Positions 10,459-64,000 of a stretch of DNA of 64,000 nt are shown in pieces; the first letter of the stretch is position 1; each line of letters begins with the position of its first letter. Location: assembly GCA_965262745.1 (NCBI GenBank), contig OZ253558.1, positions 1,858,494 to 1,922,493 on the forward strand, given 5' to 3'. This stretch comes from Chloroflexota bacterium. Lineage in GTDB: Bacteria; Chloroflexota; UBA11872. The position numbers and the translations under genes were made by a program. The notes under the pieces are model-generated. The model made no database searches and was not told the origin of the DNA. It was given only the letters and a program-made list of their open reading frames with translations.

Positions 10459-10592
10459 GCGCGCGCAACTCCTTAGGCACTGACGTCAGACCCGCAGCGC
10501 GCCGCAGCACTCATCCCGCCCGCGGGTGCGAGCGGTCGGCGTCCACGCTGCCGCTAGGCTACTCCCAGCCTATGCAAACCATACCAACGGAC

Positions 10593-11537
10593 TCAGACGC
10601 GCGCCCACGCCGCGGCAAAGGTGCGCTTGGCGTTGCCGATGATCTCGGCCGTCGTCTGGTCCGGCGCCGGCTTCATTTCAAAGCTCACCAGCGGCATCGG
10701 GGTCGGCAAATCCTTGTCGAAGTAGCCAATCTCGAACAGCGCGCGCAGGAATGCCGCCAGCTCGGGCACGTCGTTCTCTCCGCCCGGTTCCCCGAACACG
10801 GGATGCTGGTCGCCGTATTGCGGGTGGGAGCGATCGCTGATGAGACAATTGCCGATGTGGGCCTGAATGACGTGGGCCGCCGCTTTCCGCACGGAGGTCG
10901 GTGGGTCCTCACCCAGCAGCGGAAGATGGCTGAGGTCCAGACAGAGCCCGAAGTTGGGCGTGTCCGCGCGAACCATCTCACTCACGCGGATGCAGAGCTC
11001 GACGGGACCGAGCAGCGAGCGCTTCTCGACCGCGCGATCAAACTGCTCGAGCGCGATCCAAATGCCGAAGCGGGCGGCGTAGTGGCAGATCTGCTGGAGC
11101 GAGTCGGCCAGGCGGCTCAGCGCCGGTTCAACGTCGTCGTCGGTCGACGGCGCCGAGTTGGGACCGTCGAGTAGCCCGACGAGCGGGGCGCCCAGCGCCT
11201 GGGCCTCATCCACCCCCCGCAGCATGGCTGCAATGGCCCGCTGCCGCACCTCGGGATCGGCCGACGAGAGATCGAGCTGTTCCAGCAGGAGCGCCGGGTG
11301 CGCGCCATATCCGAGCGCCAGACGAGCCGTGCGGGCACGGCGAGCCAGCTCCGCACGCGTGGCGTCGTCATTGACGTGGGTGACTTCGAGAGCCTGAAAG
11401 AAGCCGTCGGCGGCGAGCGCGCCAACCGATTCGAGAATTGGCCCATCCCCGCCCTGCAACTCCGGGTGCAGCATGAAGTGCACGATGCCCACATGCATAT
11501 AGGCCTCGGGTGGTCGGTCCATCGCACGGTCCCCCAT
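10593..11537 (-). CDS. Sugar phosphate isomerase/epimerase (xylose isomerase-like TIM barrel)
   Basis: General family resemblance (HVGIVHF..., WIALEQFD, LCLDLSHL). The start is placed at the first Met downstream of the dnaE stop, because the ORF-track start at 11666 overlaps dnaE. Confidence 0.6.
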   Translation of the reverse strand: MGDRAMDRPPEAYMHVGIVHFMLHPELQGGDGPILESVGALAADGFFQALEVTHVNDDATRAELARRARTARLALGYGAHPALLLEQLDLSSADPEVRQRAIAAMLRGVDEAQALGAPLVGLLDGPNSAPSTDDDVEPALSRLADSLQQICHYAARFGIWIALEQFDRAVEKRSLLGPVELCIRVSEMVRADTPNFGLCLDLSHLPLLGEDPPTSVRKAAAHVIQAHIGNCLISDRSHPQYGDQHPVFGEPGGENDVPELAAFLRALFEIGYFDKDLPTPMPLVSFEMKPAPDQTTAEIIGNAKRTFAAAWARV

Positions 11538-11601
11538 CACACGGCGCCGCGCGCATAGTGGACCGACCGGATGCGGCTGTCGAGGAGTGGGCTGGCGGAG
11601 G

Positions 11602-14600
11602 CTACGTGGAGTCGGAGGACGCGCGCTCCACCACGACGTTTTCCGCGTCGTATTCCCGGACCACATGCGCCACCAATTCAGGGCTGGCGCTCACGGACGT
11701 GCGCCAACGCAACCGCGTCAACGCGCCATCGGGCGCCTCGATATGCAGGTCAAGCGGCACGTCACCCGGATGTGCGGCGGCAGCCTCATCCAGCCGGCGC
11801 AGCAGGTCAATGTCATGCCCCAGGTCCGGGCTGCGGCGCAGAATCACGACGACGCGCCGCGGCGCACCGCCATTCGGCGCGCCATTCGACTCGCCCGACG
11901 CCGAGTGCGCGGCGCCGCCGTTCTCCGTGGCTGCAGGTGCTTCCTCGGCGCCCGGAGATTGGTATTCGCTACCCGCGGCCTGCACGTGCACGCTGCCGAC
12001 CACGGCGGAGGGTTCGGCTGGCAAGACTTCCTCGGACGTGGGGGCAGGCGCCGTGGCGTCTGAGACGCCGCCATTGACCGCAGCCTGGGCGTCCGCCGAA
12101 GTATCGTCATCAAGGCCGATGTCGCTTGGCTTTGCGGCGTCGCTCGCGTCGGCGTCATCGGCCGCGCCCGGGCGAACAGCCGGCATCGCCTCGTCGGCGG
12201 TCGCCGTCGCGTCCGCGGACTCGGCCGCGGTCGGCTCCGGCGGAAACAGGTTCTCCGCCACGAGTTGCATCGATCCGCGCCGATCCTCAATCTTGCCAGC
12301 GGCCACGATCACACGATCAATGTCCAGGCGGTCGCCAATCTGCGCCCAGAGCCGCGGGAACACCACCACTTCAATCGTCCCCGGCGCATCCTCGAGGGTG
12401 ACGATGGCCATCGTGTCGCCCTTCTGCGTGATGAGTTGGCGCACCCCCGCGACCAGTCCTCCAACCGTGAGCGTCTGGCCGACATGCGATGCGTCCAGGT
12501 CGAAGATTTGCGTGTCAACGCTTGCGCGCAAAGCCGCTCGCACCTGGGGATTCGAGAGCGGACTGGGTGAGACGTGCAGCCCGAGGAGATCCTTCTCCCA
12601 GCGTCGCCGATCGACATTGCCGGCGGCCTCGACGTCCGGCAGCTGCGCGTCGTCGGTCTGACCTGCAGGCAGCGCCCCCATGTCGAACATCGAGGTTTGC
12701 CCCGACACGCGGTCATGGCGGGTCTGCTGGCCGCGCTTGAATACGGATTCAAGCCCCTCAAGCAAGGCGTTGCGCTCACCTAGAGCGTCGAGCGCGCCAA
12801 CTTTGGCCAGCGCCTCCAGGGTGCGGCGCGTCACGACGCGACCGTCGATCCTGGCGCACAGGTCGGCCAGTGAGGCGAACGGTCCGCCATCGTCGCGGGC
12901 GTCGAGGATCGCCGCGACGGCCTGCTCCCCGACGGTCTTGATGGTCTCCATGCCAAACACGATCTGCTGGCCACGATGGACAAACGACGCACCGCTACGG
13001 TTGACGTCAGGCGCGAGCACCTCCAGGTCCAAGACCTCAGCCTCGGATTTGGCCCGCGCGACCTTGGCCAGGTCGCCGCTGTCGGTGACCATCAAGGCGG
13101 TAAGGAATTGCACGGGATAGAGCGCCTTGAGCCAGGCGGTCCAGTAGGCAATCACGGCGTAGGACACCGCGTGCGCCTTATTGAACCCGTAGCCGGCAAA
13201 CGGCTCGATCAGACCGAAAACGTCCTCGGCGACTGACTGCGTGAGACCGTTGGCCACGGCCCGCTCGATGAACTCCGCGCGCTCCTTCTCCAGCGCTGCG
13301 CGGATCTTCTTGCCGACGGCCTTGCGAAAGCGATCGGCCTCGTCCCAGTCATACCCCGCCAGCTCCCGCACCACGCGCAGCACCTGATCGGCGTAGACAA
13401 GCACGCCGTGCGTCTCGCGCAGAATCGGCTCGAGCTTGGGATGGGGATAGACCGGCTGCTCCCGGCCGTGCATCGTGTCGATATAGCGGTCGATGTGCTG
13501 CATCGGGCCGGGACGGTAGAGGGCGATAATCGCGGCCAGATCGTCGATGGTCGTCGGCTGCAGCCGCCGCAGCGTCGACGTCATGCCGCTGCTCTCAAGC
13601 TGGAACATGCCGACCGTGCGGCCCGACCGAAGCATGGCGAACGCCCGGTCATCGTCCAGCGGAATAGCCTGTGGCGCGATCTCGCGGCCCGTGTCCTTGC
13701 GGACGAGCTCAAGCGCGTGCGTGATGGTGCGGAAGTTCGAGAGCCCGAGGATGTCGAGCTTGAGGATGCCGATGCGCTCGATGGTCTGGCCCGTGAATTG
13801 CGCCACCGGCTGACCGTCGGCCGAGCGCATCAGCGGCACGTGCTCGACCAGGGGCTCCCGTGACACCACCAGTCCCGCGGCGTGCGTCGAAGCGTGCCGC
13901 GCCACGCCCTCCACCTCACGGGCCGTGTCGAGCAACCGGCGAATCTCGTCGTTGCCCTCATAGAGCTGCTGCAACTCCGTCACGGTCTCCAGCGATCGCT
14001 CGATGGTGAAGGGGTTCACGGAATTCACCGGAATCAGCTTGGCGACGCGGTCCACATCGGGCAGCGGCAACTCCATCACGCGGCCGACGTCCCGCACGGC
14101 CGCGCGCGCGGCCAGCGTGCCGAACGTCGCGATCTGGGCCACGTGATCCGACCCGTAGGTGTCTGTGATGTATTTGATGACTTCCTCGCGGCGGTCACTC
14201 GGGAAGTCGAGGTCCACGTCGGGCATGGATCCCTTGCGGCCGACCGTGAGGAAGCGCTCGAACATGATGTCGTGCTTGATCGGGTCGATATCCGACATGC
14301 CCATCGCGAAGGCGACCAGGCTGCCGTTCACGGAACCGCGCGGGGCCGTCAGCATCCCCCGCTCGCGGGCAAAGCGAATGATGTCGCCGACGAGGACGAG
14401 GTAGGGCGAAAACTCGGTCTTCTCAATCACGTCAAGCTCGTAGGCCAGCCTCGACTCATAGGCGGAGGGGACATCACCGGACAGCCGCCCACCTAGTCCC
14501 CGCTCAGCCAGGCCGCGCAGATAGCCAACGGCGTCGCTCCCCTCCGGCAGCGCAAGTTCGGGCATCGCGATGCGCCCGAAGGGAAGGTCGATGTCGCAGC

Positions 14601-32650: not shown

Positions 32651-33904
32651 TCAGGTCGCGGCGCTGTGCGCCTCGGAAGCCCGAAGGCGTCGATTGAGCC
32701 GTCCGAGCCGATGCTCGAGCGCGGGGCGCGCGAGTGGATGGGGCAGGCCGTCGAGGAGCCGGTCGGCGCGCGTCAGCGCCTCGCGGGTGTAGTCGCGGGC
32801 CTTGGCAAAGTCGGCGGCCCGATGCTCGTAGTACTTGGCCAGCTCCACCAGCGCCCAGACGGCGCCGCGCCCCTCAAGCCCCCGCATGCCCTCCCACAGG
32901 GCCAGTGCATGGGTCCAAGCGCCGCGCCGCTTATGGGCCAGGCTGAGCGGCACTTGCGCCAACGGCCGCAAGGCTTCGTCCAAGCCAAGCTCCAGCGCCC
33001 GCGCGTAGGCCGCCAGCGCCGTGTCCATGTCCCCGGCAAGCGCGAAGGACCGCGCCGCGCCCAGCACCTGGGCGGGCTGGGCGTTCGGGCTGCGCCAGTC
33101 GTTGCAGGCGTCGCACGCGCGCGCCAGCAACGCCGCCATGGAAACCATGTCCTGCCGGTTGTGGGCCATCACCGGCACCAGCTCGTGAGCGTCGCCGGTG
33201 CGGAGATAGCGAAAGTAGATCTCGGGAATCTCATGGCTCGGTACATCGAGCGTTCGCTCAACGCCGAGGATCTCGCGCTCGAGGGTGCCAAGATCACGGC
33301 GCGGCAGCTGATGGCGCCACAAGCGGCGCGCGGCGTGCAGGAGGTCCAGCGCGCCCAGGGCATCGAGGGCGGTGCGCGTGCGATTCATGATGAAGCGCGT
33401 CCGCAACAGCGGTAGATCGAAGCTCTTGCCGTTGAAGCTCACCGTCCAGTCGAAGCGCGAGATCAGGCGCGCGAGGTGCGCCATCATGGCCGGCTCGTCG
33501 GCGTGATCGCGCATGAAGTACTGCTCGACCCGCAGCGCGCCGTCCTCCAGCCAGCCGCACCCGATCAGGAACGCGTAGGTGCCCGTCCCGCCGGCCAATC
33601 CGGTCGTCTCCGTGTCGATGAACAGCGCCTGGGCAAGCTCGAAATCCTCAAGGTCCGGGTCGCCGGTGAGCGTCGTCAGGGCGCGTCGAGCGGCGCCGTC
33701 GGGCCACGCCGGCGACAGCCCGCGCGGCAAGGGGTGACTCTGACTGATGACGAAGAACGACCCGGCGTCGTTGGACTCGAGCGCGCCGCCGATGAGATCC
33801 TCGACCGGAACGCCGGGTGCGGCAGATCGGGGCACGACCTCCGGAGACCCTTCGACCGGCTCCCACGGCCGCTTCCACGCCATCGCCCGAGGGTGTTGCG
33901 GCAT
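32651..33904 (-). CDS. mrfB: RNase H-like (YprB/MrfB-type) exonuclease with a TPR-like C-terminal domain
   Basis: LFIDTETTGL exonuclease motif, FNGKSFDLPLL, and a helical repeat C-terminus. Lies immediately downstream of the mrfA-like helicase. Start set after the helicase stop. Confidence 0.7.
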   Translation of the reverse strand: MPQHPRAMAWKRPWEPVEGSPEVVPRSAAPGVPVEDLIGGALESNDAGSFFVISQSHPLPRGLSPAWPDGAARRALTTLTGDPDLEDFELAQALFIDTETTGLAGGTGTYAFLIGCGWLEDGALRVEQYFMRDHADEPAMMAHLARLISRFDWTVSFNGKSFDLPLLRTRFIMNRTRTALDALGALDLLHAARRLWRHQLPRRDLGTLEREILGVERTLDVPSHEIPEIYFRYLRTGDAHELVPVMAHNRQDMVSMAALLARACDACNDWRSPNAQPAQVLGAARSFALAGDMDTALAAYARALELGLDEALRPLAQVPLSLAHKRRGAWTHALALWEGMRGLEGRGAVWALVELAKYYEHRAADFAKARDYTREALTRADRLLDGLPHPLARPALEHRLGRLNRRLRASEAHSAAT

Positions 33905-33917
33905 GGCGCGCGGAGGC

Positions 33918-36176
33918 TTAGACCGAAATGGCCGCGCGCGCTTGCAGCACCCGCAGCGTGGCCGCCTTAGCGCTGATGCCGTCGGCGACCGGCGGCCCCA
34001 CGCAGGCCGGGCAGCCCTCGTGGCAGTCGCAGTCGGCGGCCAGATCCGCCGCGGCCTGCATGACCTGATCGAACGAGGCGAACAGCCGCTCGCTGAGCCC
34101 CACGCCACCCGGATAGCGGTCGTAGAGGTAGAGCGTAGGCGCTTGCGTGAACGGCGACTTGATCTCGCTGACGACGCCGAGGTCGTGCGGGTCGCACATC
34201 AGATAGACCGCCGCCACGTTGGGCAACAGGTGCCGGGCGCCCCAGAGGCCGGATTCGATCTCGGCGCGGGACAGCGTCTCGGTCAACTCGGGGCGCATCC
34301 AGGCCCAGCACGCCTGCGTGTGCATCTCCTGCTCGGGGAGATCAATGGTGCCCCAGCCAACGTTGTCGTCGTCGCTGATACGCAGCTTCTTGAAGATCGT
34401 GGGCCGCGCCGTGACGCGAACCTCACCCCAGGCGCGCCCCAGCGGCGTCTCGTCTCGCTGCTCGAAGTCGTCGAGCACGGCGACGTTGACGTTCATGCTG
34501 GCGACGGTGTAGTGCTCCACCGAGACCTCTTCGACGTAGGCCTTGCCCTGATCCCAATCGAGGCGGTTGACGTGAAACTGGCGGCCGTCGTGGAGGTAGA
34601 TCGCGTCCTCGTGCACCCGCGTGGGCGCGGAGAAGCGGTCCACCTGGCCGATCACCTGCGGGCGGCTCTCGTCGGTGACGATGACGATGTTGTCGAGCGT
34701 GCCCATGCGCAGGCTCACGAACTGGGCGGGGTAGTCGTCAGCCGTCCAGTGATAGGTGCCCGCGGCCTTGTGCAGAATGCCCTCCTCGACGAGCATCCCC
34801 AGCGCGCCGTCCGTCGTGGAAACGCCGAAGGCCTCGTTTTCGATGAGCGGCAGCTCGAAGGCGGCGCACTTGAGGTGGCTGGTGTAGACGTAGAGGTTGT
34901 CGGGGTTGATGAGCGCCGACTCGACAGACTCGCGCAGCACGAAGTCCGGATTGCGCGCCACGAATTGGTCCAGCGGGCTCGACCCGGCCACGTAGACGGC
35001 AACCGACGCTTCGCGGCGGCGCCCGGCGCGACCGACCTGCTGCCAGAAGCTGGCCAGCGATCCCGGGTAGCCGCAGAGCACCGCTGCCTGGGCCTCGCCG
35101 ATGTCGACGCCCAACTCCAGAGCGTTGGTGGCCACGACCGCCCGAACCGTGCCGTCACGCAGGCCTTGCTCGATCTCGCGGCGTTCGGCCGGCAGGTAGC
35201 CGCCGCGATAGCCGCGAACCTCGCCGCGGCCCAGGTGCGGACCGCCGCGCAGCTTGCTGAGCAGCAGCTCGGTGGCCGTGCGGCTGCGTGCGAACGTGAG
35301 CGTCTGGATGTCATTGCCCAGCAGGACCCTTGAAATTTCCGCCGCCGCGTCGATCTCGGAGGCGCGAATCCCCAGCTGCGCGTTTACGACGCGCGGGTTG
35401 TAGAAGATCAGGTGCTTCTCGCCGCGCGGCGAGCCGTCGTCGTCAACCACGCGCAGGTCGCGGTCGGTGAGCCGGTCGGCAAGCTGCTTGGGGTTGGCGA
35501 TGGTGGCGGAGCAGGCCACGATCTGCGGTCGCGAGCCGTAGAACTCGGCGACTCGCAGCAACCGCCGCAGCACGTTGGCCAGATGGCTGCCGAAGATGCC
35601 GCGATAGACGTGCAGCTCGTCGAGCACGATGAAGCGCAGGTTCTCGAACAATCGGGTCCACTGGGTGTGGTGCGGCAGGATGCCCTGGTGGAGCATGTCG
35701 GGGTTGGTGATGACGACGTGCCCGGCCTGCCGCACCTTGCGCCGCGCGGCCGCCGCCGTGTCGCCGTCGTAGGTGAAGGTCTTGATGTCGGCGTCCGCCA
35801 CCTGGATCAGTGAGTAGAGCTCGTCCAGTTGGTCCTGCGCCAGGGCCTTGGTCGGAAAAAGATAGAGCGCGCGGGCCTGGGGATCGTCCAGGATGGCCTG
35901 CACGACGGGCACGTTGTAGCAGAGGGTCTTGCCCGAAGCCGTGCCGGTGACGATGCAGACGTCCTCGCCGTCAAGCACCTGCCTGATGGCCTCGGCCTGG
36001 TGGGTGTAAAGCTCGCGCACGCCGCGCTGCTCCAGCGCCCGCCGCAGGACCGGCGCGATGCCCTCTGGCCAGGGCGCATGCCGCGCCTCGCGCGCCGGCC
36101 GAACCTTCCAGGCCGTGACGCCGCGCGCGAAGGCAGCGTCACCGGACAGCCGGTCGGCAAGCTGGGCGGCGTTCAT
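33918..36176 (-). CDS. mrfA: DEAD/DEAH-box helicase with a C-terminal DUF1998/MZB domain (YprA/MrfA-type)
   Basis: Walker A TGTASGKT, DELH box (VLDELHVY), motif VI QQVGRAGRR, and a C-terminal Cys cluster CDCHEGCPACV. Confidence 0.85.
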   Translation of the reverse strand: MNAAQLADRLSGDAAFARGVTAWKVRPAREARHAPWPEGIAPVLRRALEQRGVRELYTHQAEAIRQVLDGEDVCIVTGTASGKTLCYNVPVVQAILDDPQARALYLFPTKALAQDQLDELYSLIQVADADIKTFTYDGDTAAAARRKVRQAGHVVITNPDMLHQGILPHHTQWTRLFENLRFIVLDELHVYRGIFGSHLANVLRRLLRVAEFYGSRPQIVACSATIANPKQLADRLTDRDLRVVDDDGSPRGEKHLIFYNPRVVNAQLGIRASEIDAAAEISRVLLGNDIQTLTFARSRTATELLLSKLRGGPHLGRGEVRGYRGGYLPAERREIEQGLRDGTVRAVVATNALELGVDIGEAQAAVLCGYPGSLASFWQQVGRAGRRREASVAVYVAGSSPLDQFVARNPDFVLRESVESALINPDNLYVYTSHLKCAAFELPLIENEAFGVSTTDGALGMLVEEGILHKAAGTYHWTADDYPAQFVSLRMGTLDNIVIVTDESRPQVIGQVDRFSAPTRVHEDAIYLHDGRQFHVNRLDWDQGKAYVEEVSVEHYTVASMNVNVAVLDDFEQRDETPLGRAWGEVRVTARPTIFKKLRISDDDNVGWGTIDLPEQEMHTQACWAWMRPELTETLSRAEIESGLWGARHLLPNVAAVYLMCDPHDLGVVSEIKSPFTQAPTLYLYDRYPGGVGLSERLFASFDQVMQAAADLAADCDCHEGCPACVGPPVADGISAKAATLRVLQARAAISV

Positions 36177-36452
36177 GCGGAACCTGGGTGCCTATGCAGA
36201 AGTGCACCACCGGTAACGCCAAGTATCACCGGCCCACCCTAGCGCACGACCGGCCACCACACAAATACCGAACACCCCGCTGCCAGAATCACTTGCCGGC
36301 GGCACCGGCATGGCCCCACATGTCAGATCCGCAGCCTCGCACCAGGTTGACCGGTCCCCGAGACTATGGAACATTGTTGGTTTAAGGCAGAAGCTGTTCT
36401 GATTGCCCCAGGCATCTCCATCCCTTTACGGAGGTACTGGAAGAAGCACGAT

Positions 36453-37253
36453 ATGCGTACGAAAGCACTTCCCTTGCGGATGGCGTCTATCTATGCGCTG
36501 AAGCTGATATTGATCATGCTTCTCAGCGTGTCTTGGCTGTTTGTCGATGTAGACCGAGTGCATGCATGTTCATGTTTTCCGATTGATCCTGCCGAGGCAT
36601 TTGACCGGTCTACAGCAGTGTTCTCCGGCGAGGTAGTTGATAGCCACCTGCTCTACGCAGACCTCGTCGATTACCTCAATATTTCCAATATACGTCGCCT
36701 TAATGATATCATGTCAGACCCTACTATTCTGGTCCTCTTCTACGAGTTTAAAATCGATGTCATCTGGAAGGGACATCCTTACGAATATGTTTACCTAATG
36801 ACGTCATCTTCCGACGCTTGTGGCGCGGTGTTCCAGCCGGGCAAAAAATATCTTGTCTACTCCGGCGACGGGACGTCAGCGTATCTTTGCGGATCGGTAC
36901 GCCTCGAATCGGCGCAGCAACACTTGGACGCGCTAGGACGGGTAGGACAAGGCCGTTTACCGGAGTCGGGATCACGCGCGCCGAGGCCGCCGAGCATGAG
37001 TGAGCGCATTTCCGCGGAGGGGATGGTTGCGAGGCTTTCGGGGTCTCTGTACGAGCTACTGGAGGAGCGCAATTCTAAGTCTCCAACGCCGACGCCAACG
37101 GCTACGCCAGCACCAACCCCACAGTTTGCTCGAGTCAGCGATGAGGCAGGCGCTCCGGAATGGCTCATTCCCACCGTCGCCGGCGTTGCGGGAGTCTTGA
37201 TTGGCGTCCTCACGACCACACTCACGCTGCGACGGCGCCGTGGCGGCACATAG
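36453..37253 (+). CDS. Secreted, C-terminally membrane-anchored protein with a TIMP/NTR-like N-domain
   Basis: Signal peptide ending VHA, then a mature start [12 protein letters not shown]. Later Cys residues at SSSDACG and AYLCGS. A PT-rich linker, then a TM helix plus RRRRGG tail. The region is markedly low in GC. An alternative upstream ATG at 36366 is possible. Confidence 0.7.
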   Translation: [266 protein letters not shown]

Positions 37254-37290
37254 GCTCCAGCCGTAGCGCGGTCGACTGAGGAGCGAGTTC

Positions 37291-38445
37291 CTAGGCGCTC
37301 CAGCAGTCCACGAACTGGTCCAGCGTCACGGGTTGCCGAGGCTCGGCGTGGAGGCGCTGCGCCAACCAGTCAAATCGCCGCCAGAGTTCGTCGGCCTCGG
37401 CCTCGCTGAACCGGTCGCCGAAGGCCGGTCCCCAGCCCAGCGTGAGCGGGTGGAGGTGTGTCGCCTGGCGCTGCACGTCCTCCGGCAGGTCGTCGAAGCC
37501 CGGCTGCTTGAGCAGGTGAATGTGCCGCGCGGCTTCGGCCAGGCAGGCCGTGAGGGTCAGCTTGGCGGCGGGTCCGGCGCCGGGGTGCAAGCGCTCGAGT
37601 GCCGTGCGAAAGGCCGTCGCGTCACCGTCCAGGACGCCGCGCAGCGCCTGCTCGGTGAGGTCCCGCTGCTCCGCCGCGCGGCGGTTCCAGGTCTGGAACT
37701 CGGCGGCGGCCGTCAGCGAGAGATGCCGGGTGAAGCCGATGTCCCGCGGCATGGCGTGCACCGCAATGCCGCCGTGCACCGTGCGCCGCAGCTTCGGGCT
37801 GTAGTTGCTGCCCCAGTGCAGCATGCTGTGGTAGTAGATCAAGCCGTCGCCGGCCTTCAACTCCACGCGCATGCCGCCCGGCAGCGGCGACCGCGGATCG
37901 TCCGCCAGTTGCCGATCCTCCTCGGGCGTATTCAGGCGGCGGTGGCTGCCCGGCACCACCCAGAGCACGTTGTCGTCGTAGAGCGGCAGGTTCCATTGCA
38001 GGTAGCGCGGGCCGGTTTCGGCCAGCTCCTCTTGCAGCAGCCACAGCGGCGCCACTTCGAGGTGCCCGATGTCGCGGTGCCACTTGGCGGGGCCGTGGTC
38101 GGTCCGCGGGTTGCACATCATCATCATGTGCATGGGTACCGCCTCGGTCCCGCTGAGCACCTCGCGGCTGACGCCCATGATCGGCTCGCTGAGCCATAGC
38201 TCGACCGCCAGCGCCGTCTCCGCGTCCACCAGCCGCTCAAACTCCGGCACGCGCGGCTGCGGGCGCGAGTCCCACACGCCGCCGGGCGGATCGCCGGGCC
38301 CGGCCTCGCGTCGCCAGATTTCGCGCTGCCGGTCGAGGATCGCCTCGCAAACCGTGCGCACGTCGTCGAGCTCCTCAGCCGGTATGACGTTGCGCAGGAT
38401 CAGATAGCCGTCGCGTCTGAGGCGAGAGCGGTTCAGGCTGGGCAT
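37291..38445 (-). CDS. Phytanoyl-CoA dioxygenase (PhyH) family Fe(II)/2-oxoglutarate dioxygenase, paralog 1
   Basis: RDGYLILRNVIP start, HxD in KWHRDIG, VVPGSHRR, and a distal His in MLHWGS/TVHGG. An extra helical C-terminal region of about 130 aa. Confidence 0.8.
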   Translation of the reverse strand: MPSLNRSRLRRDGYLILRNVIPAEELDDVRTVCEAILDRQREIWRREAGPGDPPGGVWDSRPQPRVPEFERLVDAETALAVELWLSEPIMGVSREVLSGTEAVPMHMMMMCNPRTDHGPAKWHRDIGHLEVAPLWLLQEELAETGPRYLQWNLPLYDDNVLWVVPGSHRRLNTPEEDRQLADDPRSPLPGGMRVELKAGDGLIYYHSMLHWGSNYSPKLRRTVHGGIAVHAMPRDIGFTRHLSLTAAAEFQTWNRRAAEQRDLTEQALRGVLDGDATAFRTALERLHPGAGPAAKLTLTACLAEAARHIHLLKQPGFDDLPEDVQRQATHLHPLTLGWGPAFGDRFSEAEADELWRRFDWLAQRLHAEPRQPVTLDQFVDCWSA

Positions 38446-38522
38446 GGGGACTCCAGTGCTGAGAAGCGCACTACACGGCGGTTCAGGCGGAACGTTTCAC
38501 GCAAGGTACTTGAGCGCTAAGT

Positions 38523-38553
38523 TTCCCACGCTGCACGCAGCGCGGGCCACCGG
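38523..38553. repeat. Family A palindromic intergenic repeat copy
   Basis: ttcccacgctgcacgcagcgcgggccaccgg; imperfect hairpin CCCACGCTG/CAGCGCGGG. Confidence 0.85.
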
Positions 38554-38615
38554 GGAATTGAGTTCCAGCCGTCGCCCGTTGGCATTGCGGGGCCGACATG
38601 TCGGGGAGGCTAGGC

Positions 38616-39770
38616 CTATCTAGCCCAGCTCGCAACAAATTCGTCCAGCGTCACGGGTTGCGGGGGATCGGCGTGGAGGCGTTGCGCCAGCCAGTCGAAG
38701 CGGTGCCAGAGTTGGTCGGCCTGGGTCTCGCCGAACCGGTCGCCGAAAGCCGGTCCCCAGCCCAGCGTGAGCGGGTGGATGTGCTGCGCGCGCGACTGCA
38801 CGTCCTCCGGCAGATCGTCGAAGTCCGACCGCCTGAGCAACTGGACATTCTGGGCGGCTTCGCCCAGGCAGGCCGTGAGGGCCAGCTTGGCGGCGGGGCC
38901 GGCGCCGGCGTGCAGTCGTTCGAGCGCCGCGTGAAAGGCCGCCGCGTCCCCATCCAGGACGCCGCGCAGCGCCTGCTCGGTGAGGTCCCGTTGCTCCGCC
39001 GCGCGGCGCGCCCAGGACTCGAACGCGGCGGCGGCCGACGGCGAGAGATGCCGCGTGAAACCTGTATCGCGCGGGTTGGCGTGCACGGCCATGCCGCCGT
39101 GCACCGTGCGCCGCAGCTTCGGGGTGTAGCTGCTGCCCCAGTGCAGCATGCTGTGGTGGTAGATCACCGCGTCGCCGGCCTTCAACTCCACGCGCATGCC
39201 GCCCGGCAGCGGGGACCACGGATCCTCCGCCAGCCGCCGATCCTCATCCGGCGTGTTCGGACGCCGGTGGCTGCCCGGCACGACCCAGAGCACGTCGTCG
39301 TCGTAGAGCGGCAGGTTCCACTGCAGGTAGCGCGGGCCGGTTTCCGCCAGTTCCTCCTGCAGCAGCCACAGCGGGGCCATGTCGTCAGCGCCGATGTCGC
39401 GGTGCCACTTGGCGGGGCCGTGCTCGGTCCGCGGGTTGCACATCATCATCATCTCCATGGGCACCGCCTCCGGCTGGCTCAGCAGCTCGCGGCTGGTCCC
39501 CATGATCGGATCGCTGAGCCAAAGCTCGACCGCCCGCGCCGTTTCCGCGTCCACCAGCCGCTCGAAGGCCGCCACGCGCGGCTGCGGGTGCTTGTCCCAC
39601 ATGCCGCCGGGCGGATCGTCGGGCCCGGCCTGGCGGCGCCAGATGTCGCGCTGCCGGTCCAGCAGCCCCTCACAGGCGGTGCGCACGGCGTCAATCTCGT
39701 CGGCCGGGATGACATTGCGCAGGATGAGGTAGCCGTCCCGCCTGAGGAGGGAGCGGTTCAGGCTTGGCAT
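38616..39770 (-). CDS. PhyH family Fe(II)/2OG dioxygenase, paralog 2
   Basis: 48/60 identical to paralog 1 over the first 60 aa (hand count). Same length (384 aa) and the same motifs. Confidence 0.8.
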   Translation of the reverse strand: MPSLNRSLLRRDGYLILRNVIPADEIDAVRTACEGLLDRQRDIWRRQAGPDDPPGGMWDKHPQPRVAAFERLVDAETARAVELWLSDPIMGTSRELLSQPEAVPMEMMMMCNPRTEHGPAKWHRDIGADDMAPLWLLQEELAETGPRYLQWNLPLYDDDVLWVVPGSHRRPNTPDEDRRLAEDPWSPLPGGMRVELKAGDAVIYHHSMLHWGSSYTPKLRRTVHGGMAVHANPRDTGFTRHLSPSAAAAFESWARRAAEQRDLTEQALRGVLDGDAAAFHAALERLHAGAGPAAKLALTACLGEAAQNVQLLRRSDFDDLPEDVQSRAQHIHPLTLGWGPAFGDRFGETQADQLWHRFDWLAQRLHADPPQPVTLDEFVASWAR

Positions 39771-39852
39771 GTGGTCTCCGATGCTGACAGGCGCACTACG
39801 CGTCGATCCTGAATGTGCTGCTCAGGCGAGATTCTTGCATGACGTGCTGCCC

Positions 39853-39883
39853 TTCCCAGGCTGCGCGCAGCCTGGGACACCGG
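39853..39883. repeat. Family A palindromic intergenic repeat copy (CAGG variant)
   Basis: ttcccaggctgcgcgcagcctgggacaccgg; perfect palindrome CCCAGGCTGCGCGCAGCCTGGG. Confidence 0.85.
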
Positions 39884-39945
39884 GGAATTGAGCTCCAGCC
39901 GTCGCCCGTGGGCATTGAGCGGCCGACATGCGGGGAGTGCCAGGC

Positions 39946-41157
39946 CTACCCGGACCAGCTCGCAACGAATTCGTCCACCGCCACCGGCTCCGGCAAGTCG
40001 TTCTGGTAGTACCTGTTGGGGCTGCCTTGCAGACCGGTCACCGGCTGGATCGTGTCGGCGAGCAAGCGCGACTCCAGCCAGTCGAAGCGATGCCACAGCT
40101 CGTCGGCTTCGGCATCGGTGAATCGCCGCGCGAACGACGCCCCCCAGTTCAGCATGAACGGCTGGGTGTACGTCGCGTAAAGCCTCAATAACGGCGACAG
40201 CTCATCGAAGTCCGGCTGCTTGAGTTGGTGGATGTGCTGCGCCGCCTTGCAGAGGAAAACCGTGAGGACCAGCTTGGCGGCCGGTCCGGCACCGGGCAGG
40301 AGCGACTCGAGTGCGCCATGAAACGTGGGCGCGTCGCGGCCGAGCGCCGCGCGCAGCGCCCGCTCGGTGAGGTCACGCTGGTCCGCCGCGCGGCGCGACC
40401 AGGACTCGAACGCGGCGCGGGCCGGCGGCGAGAGATGGCGCGCGAAGCCAACGTCCCGCGGGTGGGCCTGCACCGCATGCCCGCCGTGCAGCGTGCGCCG
40501 GAGCTTGGGGGCATAGTTGCTGCCCCAATGCAGCATGCAGTTGTTATAGATCACGCCGTCGCCGGCCTTCAGGTCCACGGGCACGCCGCCGGGCAGGGGC
40601 GCTTGCGGGTCTTCCTCGAGCTGCCGCTCTTCCTCCGGCGTGTTGAGCCGACGATGGCTGCCGGGAACGACCCACAGCACGTCGTCGTCGTAGAGCGGAA
40701 CGTTCCACTGCAGGTACCGCGGGCCGGTTTCGAGAATTTCGGCTTGCAGGAGCCGCAGCGGCGCCATGTCGATGGGGTGGATATCCCGGTGCCACTTGGC
40801 GGGGCCGTGGTCGGTCCGCGGATTGCACATCATCGTCATGAGCATTGGCGACGCCTCCGGCAGGCACAGCAATTCACGGCAGACGCCCAGCACCGGCTCG
40901 CCTAGCCAGAGCTCGACCACCCGCGCCGTATCGGCGTCAACCAGGCGCTCCATGTCCGAAACCCGCGGCTGCGGGCGCGTGTCCCACACTCCGCCGGGAG
41001 GATCGTCGGGCCCAGCCTCGCGGCGCCAGATCTCCCGCTGCCGATCGAGGATCGCCTCGGAGGCCTCCCGCATGGCGTCGAGTTCGTCGACCGGAATGAC
41101 GTTGCGCAGGATGACGTAGCCGTCCCGCCTGAGAAGGGAGCGGTTCAGACTCGACAT
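39946..41157 (-). CDS. PhyH family Fe(II)/2OG dioxygenase, paralog 3
   Basis: Same architecture and motifs (KWHRDIH, VVPGSHRR, MLHWGSNY). 403 aa, with a short insert near the C-terminus (TGLQGSPNRYYQNDLPEP). Confidence 0.8.
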   Translation of the reverse strand: MSSLNRSLLRRDGYVILRNVIPVDELDAMREASEAILDRQREIWRREAGPDDPPGGVWDTRPQPRVSDMERLVDADTARVVELWLGEPVLGVCRELLCLPEASPMLMTMMCNPRTDHGPAKWHRDIHPIDMAPLRLLQAEILETGPRYLQWNVPLYDDDVLWVVPGSHRRLNTPEEERQLEEDPQAPLPGGVPVDLKAGDGVIYNNCMLHWGSNYAPKLRRTLHGGHAVQAHPRDVGFARHLSPPARAAFESWSRRAADQRDLTERALRAALGRDAPTFHGALESLLPGAGPAAKLVLTVFLCKAAQHIHQLKQPDFDELSPLLRLYATYTQPFMLNWGASFARRFTDAEADELWHRFDWLESRLLADTIQPVTGLQGSPNRYYQNDLPEPVAVDEFVASWSG

Positions 41158-41232
41158 CAGGCCTCCGATGCTGGGGCGCGCTGCGCGTCGGGTCGAGGTG
41201 CGCGTCTCACGCGAGACCGTTGCATGGTCGCC

Positions 41233-41263
41233 TTCCCACGCTGTACGCAGCGTGGGCCACCGG
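41233..41263. repeat. Family A palindromic intergenic repeat copy
   Basis: ttcccacgctgtacgcagcgtgggccaccgg; perfect 9-bp stem CCCACGCTG/CAGCGTGGG with loop TACG. Confidence 0.85.
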
Positions 41264-41292
41264 CGGTAGGCCCACCGGGCATGGCAGAGAAG

Positions 41293-42204
41293 TTACGGGT
41301 TGCCTTGGCGAACATAGTCGGCCACCTTCTCCTCCCACATTTCCTGGTAGCCCTTGCCCTCGAAAAGGTGGATCAGCGGCGCGTGCTCGTCGCCCGGATG
41401 TACGCCGCCCGACTCCTCGGCCAGCGCGCCCAGCAGCTGCCGGCGCACCGGGTCGGCGCGCGCGATGAGCTCCGGTGAGCTGGACATGCGGTCGCCCAGC
41501 CGCATCCACAGCGGCGCGTACACAAAGAAGACATTCTTGCGCCGCACCTCGGACCTATTGCGCGAGACAGCGTGCCAGAGCGCGTTGTGAAACAGCAGCG
41601 CGTCGCCGGCGCGCAGCAGCACCTGCTCGGCGCCCGGCACGCCGGCGTCGATCTCGTCGACCTCCTGGAAGCGGCTGGGGGAGCTGAGGGCTACCGCGTC
41701 GGCGTCGCTGCGCGGAAATTTTCCACGGTGGCTGCCGGGAATGAGCAGAAAGTTGCCCATGTCGGGCGCGTCGAGATCGGTGAGGAACCAGCCGATCTTG
41801 AGATGCAGCAAGGGTGTCAACCCGTTGGCGCGCGGAAACGGGTAGGGCTTGGGACCGTCGAAGTGCCAGCGACTGCCCGGATGCGGCGTCGGCGGGCGCA
41901 CCATGACCTGCGACGTTATGAGCTGGATGCACGCTCCCATCAAGTCCATCAGGATGCCCAGATGCCTGGGGTGATCGATGAGATCGAGGAAGGCGTCCTC
42001 CTCCTCGACCACGTTGAGGGTGCTCAGGAATTCGTCGGGGGCCCGGCCATCGCGCTGCGAAGCCCCGTCGAGGCGGTCGACGGCGTCGATCAGCCGCTCG
42101 ATCTCGTCGGTCGCCAGCACGCCCGGCAGGACGAGGTAGCCCTGCGTGTCCCAGTGCTCGCGCTGTTCCGGCGTGAGCCGTGTGAGGGTCGTGGGTTCGA
42201 TCAC
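41293..42204 (-). CDS. PhyH family Fe(II)/2OG dioxygenase (shorter, divergent fourth member)
   Basis: GYLVLPGVL, the HxD in RWHFDGP, LLIPGSHRG and LWHAVS. I place the start at the GTG at 42204, preceded by GGGGAGG. The ORF-track start at 42327 adds an Arg-rich leader. Confidence 0.8.
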   Translation of the reverse strand: MIEPTTLTRLTPEQREHWDTQGYLVLPGVLATDEIERLIDAVDRLDGASQRDGRAPDEFLSTLNVVEEEDAFLDLIDHPRHLGILMDLMGACIQLITSQVMVRPPTPHPGSRWHFDGPKPYPFPRANGLTPLLHLKIGWFLTDLDAPDMGNFLLIPGSHRGKFPRSDADAVALSSPSRFQEVDEIDAGVPGAEQVLLRAGDALLFHNALWHAVSRNRSEVRRKNVFFVYAPLWMRLGDRMSSSPELIARADPVRRQLLGALAEESGGVHPGDEHAPLIHLFEGKGYQEMWEEKVADYVRQGNP

Positions 42205-42347
42205 GGGCGCACCTCCCCGAGTGCTGTTTCCCGGCGTCCGAGCCTCGGCCAGGCCCAGCGTAGCGCGGGCGAACCAGCGCCAACCATCGCCGGGGCGCCG
42301 GGCGCGTCTTAGGCGAGGCTTCGGCAAACGTGGGAGGCCCGGATTGG

Positions 42348-42695
42348 ATGGACTCCTTGTCCACGCCGCGCACCTTCTGTGAAACCCTGCCGCTGAACCG
42401 GGCCGCTTTGGTGGTATGGGTCGCGGGCGATGTCGCGGCGATCGCCGCCGCCTTTTGGATGCTGGCGTCCGGCAAGTGGGGCGGGTTCATCGGGCTGACC
42501 TTTGGCGCATTCGCCGTCACGGCGACGTTGCTGGTCTTCCGGCGCCTGCAGGTTCGCGTCGATGCCAGCGGCGTCGCGGCCACGGGTGGCATCCATTGCT
42601 TCGGAGTCGAAGTTAAACCCCGAACACGTATAAAAACTCGCGGCCCCAAGGTCACCCCGCGGCCCGCCGCGGGGTGCGCTACCAGTTGCCGTTGA
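42348..42695 (+). CDS. Possible small 2-TM membrane protein, hypothetical
   Basis: Two hydrophobic helices (ALVVWVAGDVAAIAAAFWML, FIGLTFGAFAVTATLLVF) followed by RRLQVRVD. The 3-prime end overlaps the convergent SDR gene by 17 nt. Confidence 0.35.
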   Translation: MDSLSTPRTFCETLPLNRAALVVWVAGDVAAIAAAFWMLASGKWGGFIGLTFGAFAVTATLLVFRRLQVRVDASGVAATGGIHCFGVEVKPRTRIKTRGPKVTPRPAAGCATSCR

Positions 42696-61274: not shown

Positions 61275-62036
61275 CTAGACCGGCTTGCCGCCGTGGACCA
61301 TGAGCACCTGGCCGGTGGCGAGGCGGTTGTGGAGCACGAAGCCCATGATGGCGTCGGCCACGTCTTCGGGCTCGCAGATGCGCTGGAGATAGGTCCCCGT
61401 GCGCGCCCGCTCACGGTTGTTGACCGCGTATGACGGGTCGGGATGGTCGAAGTGCCACTCGGTATTGATGAAACCCGGCGCGACGCAGTTGACCCGCACC
61501 TCGGGGGCCAGCGCCCGCGCGAGCGTGCGGGTGAGGCTGTGCACCGCGGCCTTCGAGGCGCAATAGGGGATCGAGCTGCCGGAGTCGCCGATGCCGGCGA
61601 CGGAGCCCACGTTGACCACGATGCCATCGCCGCCGGCACGCAGGTGCGGCGCGGCGGCTCGGGTGACGTCGAACAGCCCCTGGACGTTGGTGGCGAAGAT
61701 GACCTGCCAGGCTTCGTCGGCCACGCCGTCGAGGTCGTCGATGTCGGTGAAGCGGGTGGTCGCCGCGTTGTTGATGAGGATGTCGAGGCCGCCCAGCGCG
61801 GCAACGGCATCGGCAACGAGCGAGCGCGCGTCGTCCGGCGAGCTGACATCCGCCGCAATAGGCACGGCGGTGACCCCGTGCGATTGCGCTTGCGCCACCA
61901 CTTCGTCGGCGCGGTCCTTCGAACGCACGTAGTTCACGGCGACGGAGGCGCCGCGCTCGGCCAACATCTTGACCGTGGCGGCGCCGACGCCGCGGCTGCC
62001 TCCGGTGACCAGGGCGCGTTTGCCACTGAGCGTCAT
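61275..62036 (-). CDS. SDR family oxidoreductase
   Basis: [18 protein letters not shown], catalytic YCASKAAV. Confidence 0.85.
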
Positions 62037-62163
62037 TGCAGGAACTCCTTCGATCCGCCTGTCCGATCGGCATGGTACGCGCCCGCCGTTGGCGGCAGGC
62101 CCGTCGCCGGGTGAGAATCAAGCGCCGCCCGGACAGTCTCGCGGCCCAGCAACGGACTCCACC

Positions 62164-64000
62164 GTGCCCAATCGCCTAGCCGCCGAAACCAGTCCCTATC
62201 TGCTGCAACACCAGCACAACCCGGTGGATTGGTTTCCATGGGGCCCGGAAGCGCTGGCCCAGGCGCGCGCCGAGTCCAAGCCGGTGTTTCTGAGCATCGG
62301 CTACGCGGCCTGCCACTGGTGCCACGTGATGGAGCACGAATCGTTCGAGGACGATGCGACGGCGGCGTATCTCAACGAGAACTTCGTGTCGATCAAGGTT
62401 GACCGCGAGGAGCGGCCGGACCTGGATCAGATCTACATGAACGCGGTGACGGCGATCACCGGGCACGGTGGCTGGCCGATGACCGTATTCCTGATGCCTG
62501 ACGGGCGTCCGTTTCATGGCGGCACCTACTTTCCCCCTGAGCCGCGCTACGGCATGCCGTCGTTCCAGCAGTTGCTGGAGCAGGTGTACGAGGCGTGGGT
62601 GATCCGCCGCGAGGACCTGGACAACGGGGCGCAGCAGCTCGTCGAGGCGCTGCAACGCGTGCAAGTCGGCGCGTCGGCGAGTGAGCTCACCGAGCGGGCG
62701 CTGAGCCAGGCCAGCAGCGTGCTGGCGGCGAGTCACGATCGTCAACACGGGGGCTGGGGCACGGCGCCGAAGTTCCCGCAGCCGATGGCACTCGAGTTCC
62801 TGCTCCGGCGGCACGTCGCTACGGGTGAAGGGCTGTTGCTGGATGTCGTTGAGCGCTCGCTTACCAAAATGGCGCGCGGTGGCATCTACGACCATCTGGG
62901 CGGCGGCTTTCACCGCTATAGCGTTGACGCCGAGTGGCTGGCGCCTCACTTCGAGAAGATGCTGTACGACAACGCGCAGCTCGCTCGCGTGTATCTGCAC
63001 GCCTGGCAGGTGACCGGCAATTCGGAATACCGGGAGGTCGTCGAGGCGACGCTCGACTACGTGGGGCGCGAGATGACGCACCCGGCCGGCGGATTCTTCA
63101 GCACCCAGGACGCCGACTCGGAAGGCGAGGAGGGCAAGTTCTTCGTCTGGTCCATCGATGAGGTGGACGAGCTACTGGGCGACGACGCGCCGCTCTTCCG
63201 CGACGCGTATGACGTGTCGCGGAACGGCAACTGGGAGGGCAAGACCATTCTGCGGCGGGTGCGCGACGCCGACGTGGTGGCGTCGATGCACGGTCTCGCG
63301 GTTGACGATGTCGAGCCGCGGCTGGCGGCAGGGCGTGCGGCACTGCTCATGCGGCGCGAGCACCGCATCCGGCCCGGGCTGGATGACAAGGTGCTCACGG
63401 CGTGGAACGGCCTGATGCTGGCGACGCTGGCCGACGCGGCCCGGGTGCTGGATCGCGCCGACTACCGCGACATGGCGGTCGGGGCCGGCGAGTTTGCGCT
63501 GCGCGAGCTGCGCCGTCCCGATGGCCGGCTCTGGCGCACGTGGCGCGATGGGCGGGCCAAGCTGAACGGCTATCTTGAGGACTATGCCTACCTCGCGTCC
63601 GGCCTGGTGGAGCTCTACCAAACGACGTTCGATCCCCGGTGGTTCACGGCGGCGCGCGAGCTGGCCGACGCCATGCTCGGGCACTTCGCCGATCCCGCCG
63701 GGGGGTTCTTCGACACGAGCGACGACCACGAGACGCTGATCGCGAGGCCGAAAGACGTGCAGGACAACGCGACGCCTTCGGGAAACGGGATGGCGGCGAC
63801 CGTGCTGGCGCAGCTTGCCGCCCTGACGGGCGAGCCGCGATATGCCGACGCGGTTGCGCAGGCTCTGCCGCTCGTGGGGCGATTCGCCGCCGAGCATGCC
63901 GCCGGATTCGGGCAGTGGCTGTGCGCGGCCGACTTCGCGCTCGCGGGCGCGCACGAAGTCGCCATCGTGGGCGACCTCGACGATCCGGGGACGCGCGAAC
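62164..64000 (+). CDS. Thioredoxin-domain (DUF255) protein, YyaL/SSP411 type, with a six-hairpin glycosidase-like C-terminal domain (3-prime partial)
   Basis: Not in the ORF track because it has no stop in the window. My translation from the GTG at 62164 gives [61 protein letters not shown]...[12 protein letters not shown]... and stays open to nt 64000. Confidence 0.85.

Follow-up and report, generated by a model that had tools for sequence, protein, structure and literature searches.

Reviews and evolutionary studies treat TIMPs, the tissue inhibitors of metalloproteinases, as proteins of animals only (PMC4860685, PMC9409782, PMC10755359). A short G+C-poor segment in the chromosome of an uncultured Chloroflexota bacterium raises the question of whether bacteria possess relatives of these inhibitors, what such a relative would do at the cell surface, and how a gene of so deviant a composition came to stand where it does. 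The segment lies in a stretch of 64,000 nucleotides (assembly GCA_965262745.1, contig OZ253558.1, positions 1,858,494 to 1,922,493), which we call the window and to which coordinates refer unless a related locus (L numbers) is named; related proteins carry P numbers. Its gene, hereafter the TIMP-like gene, occupies 36453–37253 on the + strand and encodes a 266-residue precursor, numbered from the Met at 36453. An earlier interpretation made without database searches (the sequence-only reading) had taken the product for a secreted, membrane-anchored protein with an animal-type TIMP (NTR) N-domain, and its composition as suggesting horizontal acquisition.

Homology to the N-domain of TIMPs

Searched as a single sequence against Pfam, the protein matched only the TIMP family (PF00965, E = 0.015) over profile positions 2–94 of 183, at a score of 15.5 bits that lies below the 23.1-bit gathering score, and its best match among PDB sequences was N-TIMP-2 (E = 0.11). 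The proposed TIMP/NTR profile match thus stays below threshold for the sequence taken singly but is supported at the level of the family. PF00965 is matched individually by 45 of 149 relatives (best E = 5e-10) and NTR (PF01759) by one of the 149 (E = 3.6e-5), while a profile of the family (149 sequences) retrieves N-TIMP-2 (E = 1.3e-11), TIMP-3 (2.6e-4) and TIMP-1 (6e-4), in alignments that begin at Cys1 and, for TIMP-2, extend through Cys101.

An AlphaFold2 model built on the 149-sequence alignment A2 has a mean predicted local distance difference test (pLDDT) value of 83.5, with most of the domain above 90 and the insert between strands A and B (the AB insert) at ~72–74. When this model was compared with the PDB by Foldseek, the top 19 matches were all TIMP-1, -2 or -3, with a probability of 1.00 and a template-modelling score of up to 0.70 (N-TIMP-3), which bears out the OB-type NTR fold that had been anticipated. 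PCOLCE (1uap), agrin NtA (1pxu/1jc7), meteorin (7tlh) and complement C345C rank after the TIMPs, which outscore these other NTR modules clearly, both by sequence and by fold. Because PF00965 matches among the relatives, the match of the family profile and the fold matches all lead to the TIMP N-domain, we conclude with high confidence that the protein is homologous to TIMP/NTR. The domain and its cysteines are placed as follows.

36567–36947, + strand: TIMP/NTR-type OB-fold domain, mature residues 1–127 (family profile, AlphaFold2, Foldseek, Cys equivalences)
36567–36569, 36573–36575, 36819–36821 and 36888–36890, + strand: domain cysteines Cys1, Cys3, Cys85 and Cys108

An alignment anchored on the hidden Markov model equates precursor residues Cys39, Cys41, Asp51, Cys123 and Cys146 with Cys1, Cys3, Cys13, Cys72 and Cys101 of TIMP-2, which are exactly the equivalences previously drawn by eye; in the mature numbering they become Cys1, Cys3, Asp13, Cys85 and Cys108. 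As in TIMP-2, where Cys1 is joined to Cys72 and Cys3 to Cys101, disulfides are predicted between Cys1 and Cys85 and between Cys3 and Cys108. The third N-domain pair (Cys13–Cys124/126) was correctly recognized as missing, since Asp13 (Asp51) aligns with TIMP-2 Cys13 and has no partner Cys.

With the animal TIMP N-domain (TIMP-1 to -4; PF00965; MEROPS I35) the protein has in common, at a statistically supported level of sequence and fold similarity, a signal peptide that ends directly before Cys1-Ser/Thr-Cys3, the OB-type NTR barrel, cysteines at the Cys1–Cys72 and Cys3–Cys101 positions and an S-x-C-G loop. It differs in being a bacterial, single-domain protein that lacks the six-Cys C-terminal subdomain as well as the third N-domain disulfide, in carrying a 36-residue hypervariable, partly helical insert in place of the AB hairpin, and in having an LGxGxxPxxG...PxP extension, a Pro/Thr stalk and a C-terminal transmembrane anchor of its own; inhibition, too, is for the bacterial family a prediction.

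A large bacterial family of predicted surface proteins

A phmmer search of 1.84 billion cluster representatives yielded 1041 relatives at E ≤ 1e-3, mostly of ~200 residues, which sets the size of the family at no fewer than 1041 clusters at 50% identity. Every relative detected has a bacterial architecture of signal peptide plus C-terminal anchor, and for a family of this extent the label 'animal-type' is misleading. Cys-x-Cys, preceded by Ala, occurs in 142 of 154 sequences at a median position of 32; of these 142, 104 have Ser and 11 have Thr between the two cysteines. Columns of A2 conserved at 90% or more comprise Ala38, Cys39, Cys41, Val-Phe-x-Gly, Trp-Lys-Gly, Cys123, Phe127, Gly130, Tyr133, Tyr136 and Cys146; Cys1 at the signal-peptidase site, Ser/Thr2 and the S-x-C-G loop are among the most conserved positions of the family. 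Databases see part of it already, in that some members carry precomputed Pfam TIMP matches; no NCBIfam model matches the protein or the family, and members from cultured Paenibacillus stand in public records as 'hypothetical protein'. A scan of a genome collection with the protein's own peptides returned no match.

Outside the barrel core, the precursor divides into the following parts.

36453–36566, + strand: Sec-type signal peptide, residues 1–38 (homologue starts and -3/-1 pattern; predicted cleavage after Ala38)
36633–36740, + strand: hypervariable insert between beta-strands A and B, precursor residues 61–96 (allele comparison; lowest-G+C part of the gene)
36903–37007, + strand: post-barrel helix and LG-x-G-x-x-P-x-x-G-x-x-x-P-x-P motif, residues 151–185 (family-specific extension)
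37008–37121, + strand: stalk, made up of a helical segment (residues 186–209) and a Pro/Thr-rich linker (37080–37121) (sequence and model)
37161–37253, + strand: C-terminal transmembrane anchor (37161–37229), cytoplasmic tail RRRRGGT (37230–37250) and stop codon (clade-invariant W, L and P)

The signal peptide combines a basic n-region, a hydrophobic core of ~20 residues and a 7-residue polar c-region, DVDRVHA. Position -1, immediately before Cys1, is Ala in 139 of 144 members; -3 is Ala, Val, Ser, Thr or Ile, and 89 of the 144 have His or Tyr at -2. The -3/-1 rule defines the classical signal peptidase I site, and we therefore place signal peptidase I cleavage at Ala38, where a cut after Val-His-Ala38 would free Cys39 as the N-terminus. 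The signal peptide ending in VHA and followed by CSC is thus present as first described, and an Ala-x-Ala-type site stands directly before Cys1 throughout the family. Processing as a lipoprotein by signal peptidase II was rejected, given the V-H-A-C context, the His/Tyr at -2, which is unlike a lipobox, and the polar c-region; the TIMP-2 alignment, moreover, requires Cys1 for a disulfide.

In the model, the AB insert lies between strands 55–68 and 93–106 and forms two short helices of lower pLDDT. The 151–185 extension, which holds invariant or near-invariant columns in alignments A1 and A2, has high pLDDT; it is followed by a helix at 188–209, by a region of low pLDDT that includes a linker of highly variable length among alleles, and by a helix at 236–262 in the anchor region. 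The Pro/Thr-rich linker, transmembrane helix and RRRRGG tail of the sequence-only reading are all found, and in 99 of 141 family members the sequence closes with a hydrophobic helix and at least two Arg/Lys. The positive-inside rule predicts that the domain faces outward on its stalk. Although the end of the protein has a tripartite form (PxWLIP, transmembrane helix, RRRRGG), the tail of the window protein matches none of the sorting-signal models in NCBIfam and, across ~330 kb of clade DNA, the tail is carried by TIMP-like genes only, and for these two reasons we treat it as a plain anchor.

The stalk and the tail vary within the family. The Pro/Thr stalk measures ~14 residues in the window protein and >100 in P0002, with internal TPTPQPTPTAV-like repeats, and several alleles of the set used for stalk variation (A1 columns 250–400; P0002, P0004–P0007, P0009, P0010) contain a second helix motif, L-x-x-L-Y-x-L-x-E-E-R. 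Another subfamily (A3: P0034, P0039, P0043, P0059, P0094, P0095, P0101, P0118 and others) ends in GGCG...D..LGL.AGL.W.G.RRR. One family member gives a weak MYXO-CTERM match and others match GG_III-CTERM and LPxTATN models; from lineage to lineage, the TIMP-like domain seems to be joined to C-terminal signals, for anchoring or sorting, of different kinds.

Putative inhibitory mechanism and its alternatives

In complexes of N-TIMPs with matrix metalloproteinases (MMPs; such as 1uea, 1bqq and 3cki), Cys1 chelates the catalytic zinc with its alpha-amino and carbonyl groups and residue 2, Ser or Thr in the human TIMPs, occupies the S1' pocket, while two disulfides tie the Cys1-x-Cys3 segment to the S-x-C-G loop in a ridge that enters the active-site cleft. 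The positions that the bacterial family conserves best are those on which this mechanism depends, and we favour the reading that the protein is a surface-tethered inhibitor of zinc metalloproteases acting through a free N-terminal Cys, and give it a probability of roughly 0.5. In the mechanism that we propose, signal peptidase I would cut the Sec signal peptide after Val-His-Ala38, leaving Cys-Ser-Cys as the free N-terminus, and the next ~127 residues would fold as an OB-type NTR barrel in which the Cys1–Cys85 and Cys3–Cys108 bonds would fasten the N-terminal segment and the 'SSSDAC-G' loop to each other, shaping a wedge-like ridge for a protease active site. The helical and Pro/Thr stalk, the transmembrane helix and the RRRRGGT tail would hold this domain at the outer membrane face. 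Cys1 would bind a metzincin-type metalloprotease by chelating its catalytic zinc with the alpha-amino and carbonyl groups, Ser2 pointing into the S1' pocket, and the cell surface would be shielded from its own or foreign metalloproteases, or those proteases regulated. Membrane tethering suggests such protection from or regulation of metalloproteases. The AB insert may tune target specificity, and its hypervariability, together with the presence/absence polymorphism and tandem copies described below, fits an interaction under diversifying ecological pressure.

Several observations weigh against inhibition. The score of the single sequence stays under the Pfam TIMP threshold, the third N-domain disulfide is absent, and so is the C-terminal TIMP subdomain with its three disulfides, the C-terminal half of the protein consisting of a helix, the Pro/Thr linker and the transmembrane anchor, with no Cys. 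A few clade members lack Cys1 or Cys3 (P0008/L018, which reads 'ALASC', P0012 and P0017), so the CxC motif is not absolutely required. Many NTR modules, among them those of netrin, sFRP, PCOLCE and agrin NtA, bind rather than inhibit. No HExxH protease is encoded in the window, and no metalloprotease gene adjoins the TIMP-like gene here or in seven other family contexts.

Some of these points lend weight to the alternative of an NTR-fold surface module for binding or adhesion that has no inhibitor activity and whose AB insert provides ligand or antigenic diversity. Agrin NtA with laminin, and the NTR modules of PCOLCE and netrin with their partners, would serve as models; the non-inhibitory PCOLCE, agrin NtA and meteorin structures also appear in the fold search, no cognate protease was found in any context examined, some alleles do without Cys1 or Cys3, and display of a hypervariable loop on a stalk would be typical of adhesins and surface antigens. 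The better scores of the TIMPs in sequence and fold speak for an inhibitor instead, as does the conservation, greatest in the family, of free Cys1, Ser/Thr2 and the S-x-C-G loop, which to our knowledge non-inhibitory NTR modules generally lack. Those other modules (netrins, sFRPs, PCOLCE, the C345C of C3/C4/C5, agrin NtA, meteorin) share the fold class and are lower-ranked structural matches, but are internal or C-terminal parts of eukaryotic multidomain proteins, without a free Cys1, mostly binding, and clearly worse in score; we regard a purely binding role as doubtful, if conceivable. Even less can be said for the N-terminal Cys-x-Cys as a metal-binding or redox motif, serving copper handling or thiol–disulfide exchange on an OB-fold carrier. 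CxC motifs can in general bind metals or do redox chemistry, and a thioredoxin-like DUF255 protein is encoded in the window, though 25 kb away, but two further cysteines are conserved exactly at the TIMP partner positions, so that two disulfides explain the pattern, the model superposes with TIMP structures, and no metal-binding or redox family was matched in Pfam/NCBIfam searches; we hold this explanation to be very improbable.

Listeria monocytogenes Tim (LMRG_00714) suggests a different role. It is likewise a bacterial, membrane-tethered protein with a TIMP-like domain, and is encoded directly after the metzincin Mtz, which cleaves it, under a CI/Cro-like switch of phage origin (PMC8235301). 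By analogy with this release by a metzincin and its cell-wall effects (Boichis et al. 2021, PMC8235301), a secreted metalloprotease might cut the stalk of the window protein and set free a soluble domain whose action would fall on neighbouring cells or the cell wall; the long exposed Pro/Thr stalk of variable length would be an obvious cleavage target. Tim, however, is an N-terminally anchored lipoprotein with the lipobox LTAC and has no free Cys1 until cleaved, and its likeness to TIMP comes from predicted structure alone and not from sequence (PMC8235301), whereas the window protein has sequence-level TIMP homology, a Cys1 already predicted to be free and an anchor at its C-terminus. Here, moreover, there is no adjoining metzincin or other protease, no CI/Cro-like switch and no phage relative or link, and we consider an effector of the Tim kind unlikely. 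The inhibitor reading has a parallel in its proposed role among the potempins of Tannerella forsythia, surface-anchored inhibitors that shield the envelope from metalloproteases and of which PotA inhibits karilysin and MMP-12 (PMC9890683). Potempins differ in being N-terminally lipid-anchored lipoproteins encoded immediately upstream of their target peptidases; they have no sequence relation to the window protein and bind zinc without an N-terminal alpha-amino group (PMC9890683).

Boichis et al. 2021 report no earlier record of bacterial TIMP-like proteins (PMC8235301); Listeria Tim is the only one that we found described in the literature, and we found no paper describing the bacterial family of the window protein. 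We describe here a bacterial, single-domain, C-terminally membrane-anchored TIMP homologue with two predicted disulfides, encoded at a strain-variable and compositionally deviant locus. In a family of no fewer than 1041 bacterial clusters, the N-terminus that is the hallmark of TIMPs coincides exactly with the predicted signal-peptidase site, which raises the questions of whether prokaryotes control metalloproteases by the TIMP mechanism and of where TIMPs originated. If active, its members would offer small two-disulfide N-TIMP scaffolds with a hypervariable specificity loop, useful for engineering selective metalloprotease inhibitors.

Gene start and base composition

The open reading frame at 36366–37253 (+, 295 codons) and all peptide strings cited by the sequence-only reading, RRRRGG included, are present in the sequence, yet its start at 36366 is not upheld. 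Since all homologues begin at ATG 36453 (Met30 of the frame), this is almost certainly the true start; it is kept in all six occupied loci (the window and five relatives), and because alleles differ by 1-nt indels in 36366–36452, as aligned with the upstream region, we read these nucleotides as non-coding. Public gene calls for this gene and one paralogue (P0001 and P0006) start upstream at an earlier in-frame ATG (MEHCW... and MGFCW...), adding ~29 non-conserved residues that are probably not translated. Rejection of the gene as a pseudogene or spurious frame follows from its dN/dS (the ratio of nonsynonymous to synonymous divergence) of ~0.3 and from frames intact in all alleles. Two candidate expression signals precede it.

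36439–36446, + strand: ribosome-binding-site-like, purine-rich GGAAGAAG, 6 nt upstream of ATG 36453
36343–36348, + strand: TTGACC hexamer, candidate -35 element, in an upstream stretch conserved among most occupied slots

Other occupied slots have GGAAGAGG or a similar purine-rich stretch at the ribosome-binding position, largely conserved and weakest in L011 and L018. TTGACC is exact in the window, L008, L012, L016 and L018, and reads TTACCC in L011. A sigma-70 consensus scan of the slot gave no full promoter match, and an intrinsic-terminator scan of the slot found none.

The atypical composition first noticed by hand is fully confirmed, down to the exact counts of 49/120 at 36661–36780 and 44/60 at 35041–35100. 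The window averages 0.683 G+C (sd 0.034), and its lowest 300-bp value, 0.453, is reached at 36501; this dip, the deepest of the window and well outside what chance would give, is the sole stretch with G+C below 0.58. At third codon positions G+C (GC3) is 0.59 for the TIMP-like gene and 0.54 for the part coding for the domain, compared with 0.83 (sd 0.044, minimum 0.73) for the 48 other putative genes of the window. The 5' half of the gene, encoding the signal peptide and domain, carries the dip with G+C of 0.50, and the 3' half has 0.65. Taken over profile, fold, predicted cleavage site and composition, the core of the sequence-only reading, a secreted and C-terminally anchored protein whose mature end opens a TIMP-type NTR domain, comes through all the refuting conditions that it had named.

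Occupancy, divergence and history of the slot

The TIMP-like gene stands between PhyH1, the first of four PhyH-family dioxygenase genes, and a helicase gene, on the strand opposite to both. A series of related loci was collected by way of this helicase, and the twelve compared fall into three states.

36277–37290, no strand: variable segment ('islet'), from alignment of occupied with empty slots and tblastn of the flanks and the TIMP-like protein
37254–37290, no strand: spacer between the convergent stops of the TIMP-like gene and PhyH1, holding the 11-mer GCTCCAGCCGT
Empty slot: L007, L013, L009 and L010, with the PhyH stop 280–384 bp from the helicase start
Occupied slot with one TIMP-like gene: L008, L011, L012 (= L001), L016 and L018
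Neither PhyH nor a TIMP-like gene near the helicase: L014, L015 and L017, more distant relatives

Homology with the four empty loci runs through the 5' region of the helicase to ~36276 and resumes at the PhyH1 stop, 37291; L007 and L013, the two closest relatives, both lack the segment. All occupied slots, in turn, share the upstream region and a post-stop junction, TAGGCTC(C/A)AGCCG..., so that the gene must have stood there before these lineages split; it is ancestral at this place in the clade, and losses followed on more than one occasion. A transposon-type insertion was rejected, as no insertion-sequence-like repeats flank the segment, and its borders likewise show no direct or inverted repeats, insertion sequence, integrase or tRNA. 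Phage genomes, viral structure models and plasmids held no relatives but for one weak match to a chromosome-sized Nonomuraea record, and a phage or plasmid origin was rejected for that lack.

The 11-mer GCTCCAGCCGT after the stop occurs at exactly two sites in the window, 37254 and 39892, where 0.08 would be expected; one of 100 shuffled windows contained two matches, and the stretch around 37254 resembles the 3' spacers of PhyH2 and PhyH3. Its recurrence in a PhyH spacer, pointed out earlier, is therefore genuine, but the suggestion that the islet replaced part of such a spacer fails, because the 11-mer is kept directly after the stop codon of all alleles in the occupied slots. It belongs to the gene's 3' junction.

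Divergence was measured between the window and the five occupied relatives by tblastn and by global codon alignments, with nonsynonymous (dN) and synonymous (dS) values as follows.

Helicase: identity 92–94%; dN 0.03–0.04; dS 0.33–0.36; dN/dS ~0.1
PhyH1: identity 86–88%; dN ~0.08; dS 0.31–0.39; dN/dS 0.2–0.3
TIMP-like gene: identity 32–52% by tblastn and 39–56% in global codon alignments; dN 0.34–0.58; dS 0.9–1.9; dN/dS 0.26–0.39

The TIMP-like alleles are much more deeply diverged than the surrounding chromosome, although dS in the flanking genes is probably held down by their extreme GC3, which inflates the contrast. At dN/dS of 0.26–0.39 the alleles are under purifying selection and hence functional. 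Identity between alleles is 11–25% in the AB insert (61–96), compared with 40–77% in the rest of the domain, 32–74% in the signal peptide and 47–79% in the anchor, the last two being comparatively conserved. The signal peptide (36453–36566) is more conserved than most of the mature domain, which reverses the usual pattern and fits recombination anchored in the gene ends, or an additional role.

Could the segment be a recent horizontal islet, brought in from an animal or a low-G+C bacterium and placed beside the PhyH array? Its G+C and GC3 lie far beyond the range of the genome, it is missing from the two closest relatives, and members of the family in other phyla have the G+C of their host genomes (z 0 to +0.8), so that low G+C is not an effect of amino-acid composition. 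Against recent arrival stand the upstream region and post-stop junction common to six occupied loci, and alleles that differ by dS of 0.9–1.9, where the flanks differ by ~0.35, while all have GC3 near 0.5–0.6 (0.47–0.54 in the domain), which is unlike one recent import. The borders bear no insertion sequence, integrase, tRNA or flanking repeats, phages and plasmids supply no relatives, and the relatives detected are all bacterial-type proteins. The horizontal acquisition once proposed is thus improbable as a recent event; low G+C is a persistent property of the locus in the clade. Three putative histories fit the low G+C and divergence better: alleles may have been replaced from a pool shared across the clade, through recombination in their conserved ends; old tandem paralogues, of the kind seen in L002, may have survived in some lineages and been lost in others; or the locus, being too diverged for recombination, may have escaped GC-biased gene conversion and decayed towards AT. 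The locus is a clean natural case of alleles whose age far exceeds, and whose GC3 lies far below, that of the surrounding chromosome.

In the widest interpretation, which we put forward tentatively and think rather less likely to be right than wrong, the proteins form a large, old bacterial family of true Cys1-zinc-chelating, TIMP-type surface inhibitors, and the locus is a strain-variable 'shield' of this Chloroflexota clade under balancing or frequency-dependent selection that is exerted by metalloproteases of competitors, of predators or of the cell itself and that would preserve deeply diverged alleles together with tandem copies and nulls. If so, the pairing of TIMP with metzincin would be older than animals, whose TIMPs could be descendants of the bacterial family.

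Two further features were seen in the slots of relatives. In L002, a metagenomic contig, positions 8648–12293 hold three tandem TIMP-like copies in the same slot, of which copy 1 (P0013) and copy 3 (two overlapping frames, P0010) look frameshifted or truncated; this damage may be real decay or long-read sequencing error. A palindromic hairpin, GGGCAGGTTTGAAACCTGCCC, lies inside a longer conserved unit beginning GGCGTAGAGCC, in or beside the PhyH|helicase slot of relatives, empty slots included (L007 9701–9721, L010 9737–9757, L013 9760–9780, L011 8835–8855, L016 7232–7252, L002 12363–12383), and the longer unit appears partly duplicated in L010. The 64-kb window contains no such hairpin even with 3 mismatches allowed. 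The element could be of the repetitive extragenic palindrome or miniature inverted-repeat transposable element type, or a PhyH terminator.

Neighbouring genes and protease candidates

The surroundings of the TIMP-like gene are ordinary core chromosome, with DnaE, Lhr, MnmG, an MMPL transporter, the helicase, an RNase_H_2 exonuclease and four PhyH genes.

33918–36176, - strand: DEAD/MZB (YprA/MrfA-like) helicase, left flank (Pfam domains of the identical gene in L088)
37291–38445, - strand: PhyH-family dioxygenase PhyH1, right flank, first of four tandem paralogues (Pfam PhyH)
37291–38445, 38616–39770, 39946–41157 and ~41296–42327, - strand: the four tandem PhyH paralogues (array 37291–42486), with similar 3' spacers

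The only HExxH frame of the window was rejected as a protease, being an O-methyltransferase. Among the contexts examined, the one hint of a protease is in L092, where a frame of 167 residues at 1457–1960, ~5 kb from P0082 (7001–7576), gives a weak Pfam match to Peptidase_M10 (matrixin).

The two flanking genes are the slot's conserved anchors: PhyH1 is 86–92% identical in relatives, and the helicase 92–97%, with 97% in two Chloroflexota metagenome-assembled genomes; across Bacillota and Chloroflexota the helicase is ~50–55% identical. On the - strand, 32654–36176 encodes this DEAD/Helicase_C/WHD_HRQ1/MZB helicase and then the RNase_H_2-family exonuclease, which together we take to be the Bacillus YprA/YprB pair (the mitomycin-repair factors MrfA/MrfB). 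The large thioredoxin-like DUF255 (Thioredox_DsbH) protein mentioned above, the one thiol-redox gene product noticed, is encoded at 61933–63999 (+), at the window edge, and is probably unrelated to the TIMP-like gene. Each related locus has at least two to three detectable PhyH copies (two to three in L007–L018, three in L001, four in L087), and the array looks dynamic.

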